NCBI RefSeq assembly: GCF_051903065.1
Contig: NZ_CP178439.1
Reading direction: 5' to 3' (one strand)
DNA: 64,000 bases
Origin: Escherichia coli
GTDB lineage: Bacteria; Pseudomonadota; Gammaproteobacteria; Enterobacterales; Enterobacteriaceae
Shown: one piece after another, positions 46,001 through 49,000 of the stretch
Numbering within the stretch: the first letter of the stretch is position 1
How the letters are laid out: the number at the start of each line of letters is the position of its first letter
Made by a program: the position numbers

Positions 46001-49000
46001 TCTTGATAATACCGGGAATATGATTCCATCAAACCATCCTTATTTTGAAGTCATCTCAAAAGCATGTATAAATGGAGTGCGTGACTTTGTTCGTCAAAAC
46101 CCGTGGGTAGTCTGACGGTCAACTATAAAGCATAATATAATTAGTAATAACAAGGAACAGACATGAATGAAAACTCAGTAATCTTAATAAGTTTATTTTG
46201 GTTTTTTTTGGGATCGAGTGTTGTAGCTGGTTTTATGGATGCATCATTATATTGCTGGATTTTTGCAGCCATAAGCGCATTGTTTCTTCTTTCGGTGATA
46301 CAAACACCAAAGGAGTTAACGGTATCTATTAGTCATATGACAAGCAAAACGCTGATCTCAAAGACAGATGATGGATACACATTTAGCATTTCACCTTACG
46401 GAGACGGGTACCGCTTATCAGTCTCGCCTGAAAATCGTCACAATGGTACCCAAAGCTTTGACGGCTGGTTCCCACGTTTTTTTTCCGAACCACAGTATGC
46501 CAAATCATCTTTAACTAAATTTCTCGGTGAGTCCTTAGTATGGGAAGAAGATTCAAGTAATGCTCTATGAGATTACTTATTATAAATTTTTCTATTAATC
46601 TCCATGGAGTGATATATGAATTTGGCCTATTTTTTATTTTTGTCTATAACTGTTATGCTTACGAGCTTTATTATTAAATCACTTGTCGTATTGGTAAAGT
46701 TCAAATTACTTCGTGATGAACGTCTCGAATATACCAGCAATAAAAATATTGATGAGATGTACGATTTAATGAATGCGAAGGAAGAAATCCTCATAAGGCA
46801 TCATAAGCAGATGTTGGCATTGCATCTTTCACTATTAATATTCGTTCTATTTATTGCTTACATTTACTAAAAATAATTTTATTCAACATTTCAACAAAGG
46901 GTTTTCAATGGAAAGCTTCGAAACTGAACAAATGATTCAATATGCTTTCTACATAAATATCGTAATAACGACTGGTTTGGCATGGTTTTGCTTGCGGTCA
47001 GGATTGCATTACAATTTTTTCAGAAAAGCAGAGAGTGCCAGAACAAAAGGGCTGAGTAGTACCTCTACTGAACACGGTCCAGCAATAGTGAGACTAAAGA
47101 AGCTACAAGCATTAGTAGATTTTATTAGTAACTGTGCTTTTCTAATCCTTTCAATTGGCACAGCTTATATTTTGTATGTTTGGAGCCACAGTTAACTCAT
47201 ACGAGGTAACTTCGGCAGGTAACAACTTCTAATGCAGGACTTTAATAACTCTAAGGGATTCTACATGAAAAAAGACGATCTAATTACGCGTTGTAAATTA
47301 CTTAAAGGCGAACGCGATGAGTCTATCTTTACCATATTAATTGGGATAGTAGTAAAGCTGGGGCTGGTAGGCCTGGCATTCTATCTGTTGCTTGGTTCCA
47401 CGATTGATTGGTCAAGCTGGAAAACTTATGCCGCCATGTTGATCTTGGGAGCATTTCTCTAAAATCTTGAACCTTTTTTCACTCATTACAAGCCATGACC
47501 TAGTGCGTAGATCATACGATCTTTAAACCTTATGTCATTGATTTATAAGTACATATAACAAAGATTATGTTAAATACTGTATGTATGTACAGCATCAACA
47601 GTTGCCCCCCTCATATTGAGGTAATTGCTACATTCATACCACTATTCTTCTTATAGTATCGACATCCTGAATTATTGCACCCTACTGCTTTGTCTTTAGC
47701 TGTTCCGAATTAAAATTCATTGCTCAATTTGGATCACATGACGATCAGCGTATTCCTTTGCTTTATCAAAGTTAAGTTTTTAAAACATAAGATATGTAAT
47801 GACAAATTCTCAATCTGATTTTCCTTTGAACGATCAAAATTTTCAGGCAGATTTGCTGAAAATCAAAAAGGTTTTCGCCGACCTTATAACGCAGGCATCA
47901 GATGGTAAGATACCCATAAGGTCTTCTCATGTACACGGCTTACACCATTTCGAGGAGCTCTACATCCGGGCAAGAGCAGGCATGTGTTCGGTCCTGGGAT
48001 ATCCGGTCATGGTTGTTTCAACTATCTCAGTTAAAGAGCCCGGCACAGGCATTTTTAGAGCGCTTCTTGCAGAATTGAAATGTATTGCAGATGAACAAAA
48101 TTACATTTTGAAAATTGAAAATGTACTGCCTCCCCTATTCCGCAAATACCTTATTCAAGAAGGTTTTGTTTTCCCAGGTGAACCTTGGATGTGTGGTTCC
48201 GGCTATTGGTTTAAGAACCCACAAGTACTTCATGAAAATATTGAGTTATTATCTGTTTAAGTCGATCTAACAATTTCACTGGAGCTAACATGTCCCCGGA
48301 ATTGGTATCAGACATTGCAAGAGTGGCGCATGAAAAGCTACTTTCAATTTTAACGGAGTGCGGCATAGAGAAGACGGCAGGCACTTGCCTTTTTGCAAGC
48401 TATCTTGTGTGTTATTTAGCAAAAACTAAAGGTCTAGATGCTGTTGTCCGTGGGGGTAACGGTGCAGATGATGGCGGTATATTTATAGAGTGTGGTGGCT
48501 TTGGCCATTATTGGTGTGAGTTGAATTTCGAAGAAGTGCAATATTATATTGACATCACTTCCGAACAGTTTGGGTTTCATCCATACATAGTGAAACTCGC
48601 CAACGATATAACAGGATGGCCTCGATATATTCCTGGTGATCAGGAAACGGTCGATAGTCATTTAGAACAATTATTACGCGACGGCTATACAGAATAGGCT
48701 GCGTATACCCTATCGCAGCCTTTCAGGCTCTTAACCCTTGTGACCTGTTAACGGAACCACTCAGGATGACGCTGCCGATCAACTTTGATAACCTGCGAAT
48801 TAAATTCAACGACATCCGCTGGAGTAAGCATTAATTCATCAGGATTTACAATAAATGGTCTTAAAACCACTTCGCCACCGTCTTCTTTTGCACCGTAGAT
48901 ATTAATAAGAAAGTGCAGTCGTTGATTTCCTTCAGCATTGCGTTGCCATTCTCTAAAAGTCAAAGTTTGTTTAATATAGTTTGTTAAAAGAAATGCGAAT

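Follow-up and report, generated by a model that had tools for sequence, protein, structure and literature searches.

We analyzed a 64,000-nucleotide stretch of Escherichia coli DNA (contig NZ_CP178439.1, called the window below) and report on a 20-bp site within it, at 47575-47594, that is, judged by its sequence, a top-tier LexA operator (SOS box). The window belongs to the backbone of an IncHI2 plasmid, and the site precedes two open reading frames (ORFs): ORF1, which we assign to the small GNAT-fold (acetyltransferase-like) proteins, and ORF2, which we assign to the transglutaminase/papain-like fold. Based on the score of the site and the published relation between such scores and binding, LexA very probably binds there in Enterobacteriaceae. 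The further proposal, that the site is a working SOS operator making an ORF1-ORF2 operon inducible by DNA damage, we hold at a probability of about 0.5.

Sequence and score of the predicted operator

Enterobacteriaceae LexA recognizes a CTGT-N8-ACAG-type motif, and the hosts of these plasmids are Enterobacteriaceae. Within the 20-mer TACTGTATGTATGTACAGCA, CTGT occupies 47577-80 and ACAG occupies 47589-92. The resulting 16-bp core, CTGTATGTATGTACAG (47577-47592), has no core mismatches, and by hand count 17 of the 20 positions agree with the consensus TACTG(TA)5CAGTA. An earlier reading of this DNA without database searches (the sequence-only reading) had placed a CTGT-N8-ACAG box here, and its position held exactly. 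This loose motif occurs three times in the window vs. 0.62 times expected from dinucleotide-preserving shuffles, and the remaining two copies lie at 60266-81 and 63233-48.

We scored sites by the heterology index (HI), the standard measure for LexA sites, in which lower values are nearer to consensus. The HI matrix was recovered by regression on 140 sequence/HI pairs from PSOSP Table S1 (PMC12527982). The fit was exact (root mean square 1e-5) and returned the published values for recA (4.31), sulA (4.65), umuDC (2.77), and uvrB (6.11). Binding sites fall below an HI of about 12.6-15, with the threshold of 15 quoted in PMC12211044, and strong sites fall below about 7.

The box has an HI of 3.77, which is lower, and thus better, than those of E. 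coli recA and sulA. Just three distinct sites in the E. coli K-12 table score below it (2.35, 2.77, and 3.34), and HI values as low as 3.77 uniformly went with LexA binding in the same study (PMC12527982). Within the window, only the box of a umuD-like gene ranked ahead (HI 1.95), followed by the 47575 box, a box at the integron integrase gene intI1 (10.5), and then a site at 14.7. We also scanned 268.6 kb of pSTM6-275, a complete 275.8-kb IncHI2 plasmid, in which only the umuDC box and the 47575 box scored below an HI of 6. There, the latter ranked second among 101 CTG-N10-CAG sites, and the next best site apart from umuDC scored 9.6. Matrix scoring against background was the check that the sequence-only reading had proposed for its box, and the outcome was clearly not the poor score that would have spoken against it.

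Could such a box be an accident of composition, with no meaningful LexA binding in vivo? Its core can be written C-TGTA-TGTA-TGTA-CAG, a tetranucleotide repeat of the kind that AT-rich DNA might place between a C and a CAG. The region has a GC content of 39%, and the loose motif has an expectation of 0.62 per window. However, even under a composition model at the local 39% GC, only ~3e-4 sites with an HI of 3.77 or lower are expected per 64 kb. The empty range up to 9.6 in pSTM6-275 and the uniform binding reported at such low values also argue against a chance match, which we consider highly improbable.

Possible control of ORF1 and ORF2 by the box

If the box is a working operator, a LexA dimer would sit on the 20-mer in undamaged Enterobacteriaceae hosts and repress a weak sigma-70 promoter just upstream, with TATGTT (47566-71) or AAGATT (47561-66) as its -10 element and a start within the box. 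DNA damage would then lead to RecA-stimulated self-cleavage of LexA and to a transcript with a leader of ~220 nt. ORF1 and ORF2, both putative enzymes, would share this one transcript, which would end at a hairpin at 48697-48721. The operator itself would have arrived with, or formed at the edge of, a ~190-bp segment that replaced a 158-aa gene and presumably its promoter.

The arrangement of the surrounding genes is consistent with this model. The box lies in a 337-bp gap, the widest intergenic space in the local series of ORFs, and every gene flanking it from 44662 to 48697 is on the + strand, so the downstream pair is its only annotated target. Moreover, the 158-aa gene of relatives is gone, and the intact ORF1-ORF2 pair therefore needs a new promoter. 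A weight-matrix scan found two + strand candidates, TTGATT-17-AAGATT (47538-47566) and TTTATA-18-TATGTT (47542-47571), which outscore all but 0.15-0.24% of positions in the surrounding AT-rich block and would place the box at about -4 to +20. Given the sole annotated target, the lost ancestral upstream gene, and weak promoter elements in the right place, LexA regulation of ORF1 and ORF2 through the box is a roughly even proposition.

Weighing against such control are the distance between box and gene, the poor promoter, the position of the box on a recombination junction, and the natural disruption that it tolerates. The sequence-only reading had put the box ~200 bp upstream of the gene at 47799-48260, with a second ORF at 48290-48697. 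Both statements agree with our coordinates, and the distance from the end of the box to the ATG at 47799 is 205 bp. This spacing is atypical for an SOS box, and the ATG also lacks a Shine-Dalgarno sequence. The chromosomal recA, sulA, umuDC, and dinI boxes of E. coli and Salmonella share the same 20-bp consensus, and the HI of the 47575 box falls in their best-binding class. However, chromosomal boxes overlap mapped promoters, whereas the 47575 box is without a clear one, and in the part of the published Salmonella table at hand they lie mostly 8-105 bp from the ATG, with tisB (236 bp) as the exception.

Copies of the identical 20-mer in seven viral contigs are placed differently. In at least three unrelated contexts, the 20-mer stands 5-12 nt before a Shine-Dalgarno sequence and ATG, in the classical operator arrangement. 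Among these viral or prophage contigs, the product of the gene that follows is an acidic protein of ~105 aa (MAKQKGSP...) in L010 (20-mer at 8151-8170), L011 (2983-3002), and L014 (1953-1972), and a different gene follows in L008 (6481-6500) and L013 (4622-4641). A further copy, in L009 (4785-4804), looks like a third context.

The promoter evidence was similarly mixed. By hand count, the two + strand candidates match the consensus at 7/12 and 8/12, and a consensus scan with a threshold of 9/12 returned no + strand promoter at the box. Higher-scoring promoter-like sites in the weight-matrix scan, including minus-strand ATGACA-16-TATGAT, are clear of the box, and the best of those nearby runs 47538->47511 on the minus strand. 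In the literature, we found no expression data on ORF1 or ORF2.

The box also sits exactly on a homology breakpoint. To the left, contig L004 is 94.7% identical to the window from the stop of the upstream 76-aa ORF to 47575 and diverges at the first base of the box. To the right, homology with L005, L006, and L015 restarts at about 47762-47768, ~30 nt before the ATG. In L006 and L007, where ORF1 is 89% identical, the 158-aa gene is directly upstream of ORF1, and its family adjoins an ORF1 homolog, before or after it, in Klebsiella IncHI1B plasmids and in L004. In the window, the ~190-bp segment starting with the box takes the place of this gene. The other main IncHI2 lineage retains ORF2 only.

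Comparison with relatives gave no sign of a conserved operator. Across 10 loci with ORF1 and/or ORF2 homologs (L002-L007 and L015-L019; IncHI2 variants, IncHI1, IncHI1B, and unplaced contigs), no site had an HI below 14, so conservation neither supports nor dates a function of the box. Because the box occurs in one lineage and in none of these related loci, LexA control, if real, would be a recent rewiring rather than a property of the gene family. The leader sequence is likewise confined to one IncHI2 lineage of ~650 plasmid records, almost all at least 99% identical. The box is invariant among them only through this near-clonality, which makes its conservation uninformative. Matches to the ~190-bp segment were limited to IncHI2 among plasmids and to near-identical copies, almost all on plasmids, among E. 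coli genomes, and the sole metagenome match was the same plasmid. A search for its origin gave no match in phage records or representative genomes, and a search for terminal inverted or direct repeats, which would mark it as mobile, found only short ones of low identity.

Natural variants show that the plasmid can do without the box. We examined three variant records of the intergenic region (L021, L022, and L023), with pXH992_1 (L024) as a fourth plasmid. In pRHB16-C13_2 (L021), a T->C change at window position 47580, the critical T of the motif, turns CTGT into CTGC and raises the HI from 3.77 to 7.9 (+4.1). The Shigella plasmid 1205p1 (L023) carries an IS5-family insertion sequence (IS) ~17 nt past the box, at about window 47611 and before the genes. 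In pXH992_1, the ISL3-family element ISKox3 interrupts the box itself and is flanked by an 8-bp target duplication, ATGTATGT (L024 2944-2957 and 4275-4288, corresponding to window 47581-47588), which splits the palindrome into two half-sites. SJTUF10640 has a C6->C5 change in the leader. Since the box is mutated or disrupted in natural plasmids, the operator is dispensable for the plasmid.

These observations could also be explained by an orphan or relic operator, which LexA would bind but which would exert no control over ORF1 or ORF2. The box would then derive from a recombined fragment of an SOS locus or have been born at the junction, and the genes would be transcribed by read-through from the upstream + strand genes or from a promoter nearer to the ATG. 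This account fits a box that opens a segment with no homolog elsewhere, between two breakpoints, with no canonical promoter, a spacing unlike that of the same 20-mer in viral contigs, boxless relatives, and tolerated disruption. It also fits the further promoter-like sites downstream of the box, TTGAGG-18-CACTAT (47616-45) and TTGTCT-15-TAAAAT (47690-716). Yet an unselected relic should decay, and here 17 of 20 consensus positions and a low HI remain, although this argument is weak because the lineage is young and clonal. Read-through is also not obviously favored, as the block upstream of the box ends in a small hairpin followed by Ts (by eye; the scan made no terminator call). Overall, we regard the orphan operator as the main rival of the working operator, though as rather less likely.

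Another explanation is that the box drives a small unannotated product of the ~190-bp segment itself, such as a type I toxin resembling TisB/DinQ or a small RNA induced by SOS. A GAGG lies 24 nt past the box, followed by a TTG-initiated 24-codon ORF (47625-47699), and this GAGG can pair with the CCTC of a CCTCA-TAT-TGAGG mini-hairpin in the segment. In addition, a 26-codon ORF starting at ATG 47738 has a hydrophobic N-terminus, and LexA-controlled plasmid type I toxins do exist, e.g., dqlB (PMC12211044). However, MLHSYHYSSYSIDILNYCTLLLCL and MTISVFLCFIKVKFLKHKICNDKFSI were the only small ORFs found in the leader across all six frames, and neither has the ~19-aa hydrophobic helix that would span a membrane. 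The leader folded no better than shuffled sequence (z-score 0.11), with no meaningful Rfam match and none near gathering score, and the stretch from the box to ORF1 held no terminator-like site in the consensus scan. The segment contains no conserved ORF or RNA motif, and with no homologs, coding conservation lends the small ORFs no support.

The closest known parallel in geometry is tisB/istR-1, whose strong LexA box, in the same part of the Salmonella table, likewise lies over 200 bp from the ATG. The tisAB locus combines a structured leader with an antisense RNA and a hydrophobic toxin of 29 aa, and we found none of the three at the 47575 locus. Compared more broadly with type I systems (TisB/IstR, DinQ/AgrB, and DqlB), the locus showed neither a hydrophobic peptide nor a structured leader or antisense RNA. 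A small SOS-induced product is therefore quite improbable.

Finally, the box might act on leftward transcription. The only promoter call that overlaps it is a minus-strand TGTACA-16-CATAAT (47591->47564; 9/12 consensus match) with its -35 in the box, from which SOS induction could yield an RNA running antisense into the 3' end of the upstream + strand genes. This site, however, scored below 4 bits in the weight-matrix scan, and no plausible minus-strand gene lies to the left of the box. Because its -10 is in the part shared with L004 and its -35 is in the lineage-specific part, the match would be an accident of the junction, and we give this option very little weight.

The proposal of the sequence-only reading, SOS-inducible cargo beyond translesion synthesis, is thus supported in part. 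The box is top-tier by the measures used here, while control of the two ORFs is uncertain given the 205-bp spacing, the weak promoter, the junction, and the boxless relatives.

Properties of ORF1 and ORF2

Features of the box region and the two other SOS boxes of the window.
Feature	Coordinates	Strand	Details
LexA operator (SOS box), predicted	47575..47594	.	TACTGTATGTATGTACAGCA; HI 3.77
Weak candidate sigma-70 promoters	47538..47571	+	weight-matrix scan; predicted start within the box
~190-bp lineage-specific segment (would-be leader)	47576..47765	+	box at its start; homology breakpoints on both sides
ORF1, small GNAT-fold (acetyltransferase-like) protein	47799..48260	+	153 aa; WP_000185304, annotated hypothetical
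ORF2, transglutaminase/papain-like fold	48290..48697	+	135 aa; WP_000074418, annotated hypothetical
Stable hairpin, likely operon end	48697..48721	.	-15.8 kcal/mol; z-score -3.48
umuD box	60264..60283		TACTGTATGTATAAACAGTA; HI 1.95
intI1 box	63231..63250		GACTGTTTTTTTGTACAGTC; HI 10.5

Both ORFs encode real proteins. Sequence searches of Pfam, NCBIfam, PHROGs, PADLOC, and PDB left both without a useful name, but structure models replaced the "unknown genes" of the sequence-only reading with a GNAT-fold protein and a transglutaminase-like Cys-His-Asp protein. The same reading had mentioned toxins or mobile-element functions, and nothing we found identifies ORF1 or ORF2 as either.

ORF1 has few relatives, with 36 matches among 1.8 billion cluster representatives. 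Its model, built from a 20-sequence alignment, has a mean predicted local distance difference test score (pLDDT) of 90.7 and shows the GNAT alpha/beta fold. The loop K79-E-P-G82-T-G84 lies between a strand (70-78) and a helix (85-100), and G84 and E107 are invariant in the family. Compared with Q/R-x-x-G-x-G/A, the acetyl-CoA pyrophosphate-binding loop between beta4 and alpha3, the ORF1 loop has Lys where Gln or Arg is expected, and cofactor binding is only putative. ORF1 itself had no Pfam match and did not reach the GNAT gathering score, and 4 of the 20 relatives match Acetyltransf_1 weakly (best E-value 4.6e-4). Foldseek matched it at E 1e-8 to uncharacterized proteins of two virulent phages, phiMAM1 of Serratia and JA29 of Dickeya. 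The anti-CRISPR acetyltransferase AcrVA5 belongs to the same minimal-GNAT architecture class, but it has no detectable sequence homology to ORF1 and 13% identity in structural alignment. PADLOC defense models matched neither ORF, and nothing tested ties ORF1 to CRISPR or other defense.

The GNAT-like gene family is mosaic, since the IncHI1 homolog (L003 3686-4159, plasmid pN18S0993-1) shares only the C-terminal ~65 residues with ORF1, at 57% identity, while its N-terminal half is unrelated. The match of pHCM1 to ORF1 covers the same C-terminal residues. At L019, neither partner family was detected beside the GNAT homolog, which argues against an obligate toxin-antidote pair.

The ORF2 model (pLDDT 89.5) has invariant C33, H73, and D88, with the Cys at a helix N-terminus and the His and Asp on the two following, adjacent beta-strands, as is characteristic of transglutaminase-like/papain-like folds. 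No Pfam or NCBIfam family matched, Transglut_core included, and the sole PDB sequence match was insignificant (E-value 1). ORF2 differs from TglA, LapG, SseI, arylamine N-acetyltransferases, and protein glutaminases in being a minimal 135-aa domain of a putative enzyme type. Its start has a GGAG Shine-Dalgarno sequence 7 nt before the ATG, and the gap to the ORF1 stop is 30 nt. The hairpin that follows separates ORF2 from a convergent 175-aa minus-strand ORF (48748-49275); the U tract after it is weak, and it can only tentatively be called a terminator.

Members of the 158-aa-type family lie at L006 87-563, L015 2374-2766, L016-L018 about 2510-3010, and L004 4660-5070. The family beside the GNAT-like gene elsewhere, which is missing from the window, has a conserved ECDGHT ... 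PHLW ... IDYRLRMW signature and, by eye, a Cys/His/Asp pattern. We considered kinship between this 158-aa family and the 135-aa family of ORF2, but profile-profile comparison was not significant.

One conceivable role for the pair is as an SOS-timed module for plasmid establishment or counter-defense, in which a minimal GNAT protein would act together with a Cys-His-Asp enzyme of acyl-transfer or hydrolase type to modify a protein of the host or of a defense system. LexA would silence the pair in a settled host and permit a burst, via RecA on single-stranded DNA, upon DNA damage or just after conjugative entry. The IncHI2 lineage would owe this timing to the exchange of the first gene of the operon, together with its promoter, for a segment under LexA control. 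We regard this role as unlikely.

Other LexA sites and plasmid context

Host LexA boxes in front of mobile-element genes are not unique to this locus. They are also found at the umuDC-like operon, at intI1, and at impCAB and dqlB, which are plasmid-borne and under LexA control on IncI1 pTF2 (PMC12211044). However, a connection to DNA damage or recombination is known for those targets, and relatives share their boxes, whereas the 47575 box is confined to one lineage and stands before an uncharacterized enzyme pair. The locus has the sequence of an SOS box but lacks its conservation upstream of orthologs. In the searchable literature, we found no account of the locus, none that connects IncHI2 to an SOS box, and none that mentions WP_000185304 or WP_000074418. 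The locus would thus be one more mobile-element locus with a predicted host LexA operator, and the link between box and genes is uncertain.

Among the multidrug-resistance plasmids of E. coli, Salmonella, Klebsiella, and Enterobacter, the IncHI2 type is common. With a working operator, DNA-damaging antibiotics would switch on an error-prone polymerase, an integron integrase, and an enzyme pair of protein-modifying type on these plasmids, and the locus would be a clean case in which recombination brought an accessory operon under the control of a stress regulator of the host. If the operator is an orphan, a near-consensus LexA box alone is no proof of regulation.

The umuDC-like SOS box noted by the sequence-only reading was confirmed, and its HI is better than that of every site listed for E. 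coli K-12 in the published table. A umuD-like gene (59810-60244, minus strand) begins 20 bp downstream of this box and is followed by a umuC-like gene (58567-59826, minus strand), and a divergent 205-aa ORF (60438-61055) flanks the intergenic region on its other side. The intI1 box, which we take to resemble the LexA box of class 1 integron integrases, is 11 bp upstream of intI1 (62669-63220, minus strand), a gene truncated at its 3' end by IS26. A dfrA cassette (63367-63849, + strand) comes after it. In pSTM6-275, the intI1 box is present in two copies, and two borderline sites were found (L030, L033 set): CACTGGTTTTAATTACAGGT at 60085-60104 (HI 12.5), 17 nt before a tyrosine recombinase gene divergent from hha, and CACTGAATGTGTAAACAGAT at 262403-262422 (HI 13.35), 11 nt before repHI2.

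Many IncHI2 (MOBH, MPF-F) plasmids of E. coli, Salmonella, Klebsiella, and Enterobacter match the backbone block around the box (46500-49500) at 100% identity. This block is part of a wider AT-rich block (44000-49900; 39% GC vs. 50.5% for the full window) made up of small co-oriented + strand ORFs downstream of dcm-type methyltransferase and thermonuclease genes. The 46500-49500 block and its equivalents (L025-L028) are a frequent target of insertion sequences. Two of them, IS903B and ISApl1, have inserted between ORF2 and the minus-strand genes that come next, where they break the 175-aa ORF; ISVsa5 is found within the 76-aa ORF, and farther upstream there is an IS3-family element. ISKox3 is also present on Klebsiella michiganensis and Salmonella plasmids that match the window. 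We asked whether the insertions point to selection on the leader and rejected the idea, because they are scattered across the whole AT-rich block, with only two events in the box or leader. The backbone block is bordered by debris of a resistance region (49902-52789 and 61848-62723), comprising a truncated Tn3-family transposase ORF, two IS26 copies, and strA/strB-type aminoglycoside phosphotransferase ORFs.

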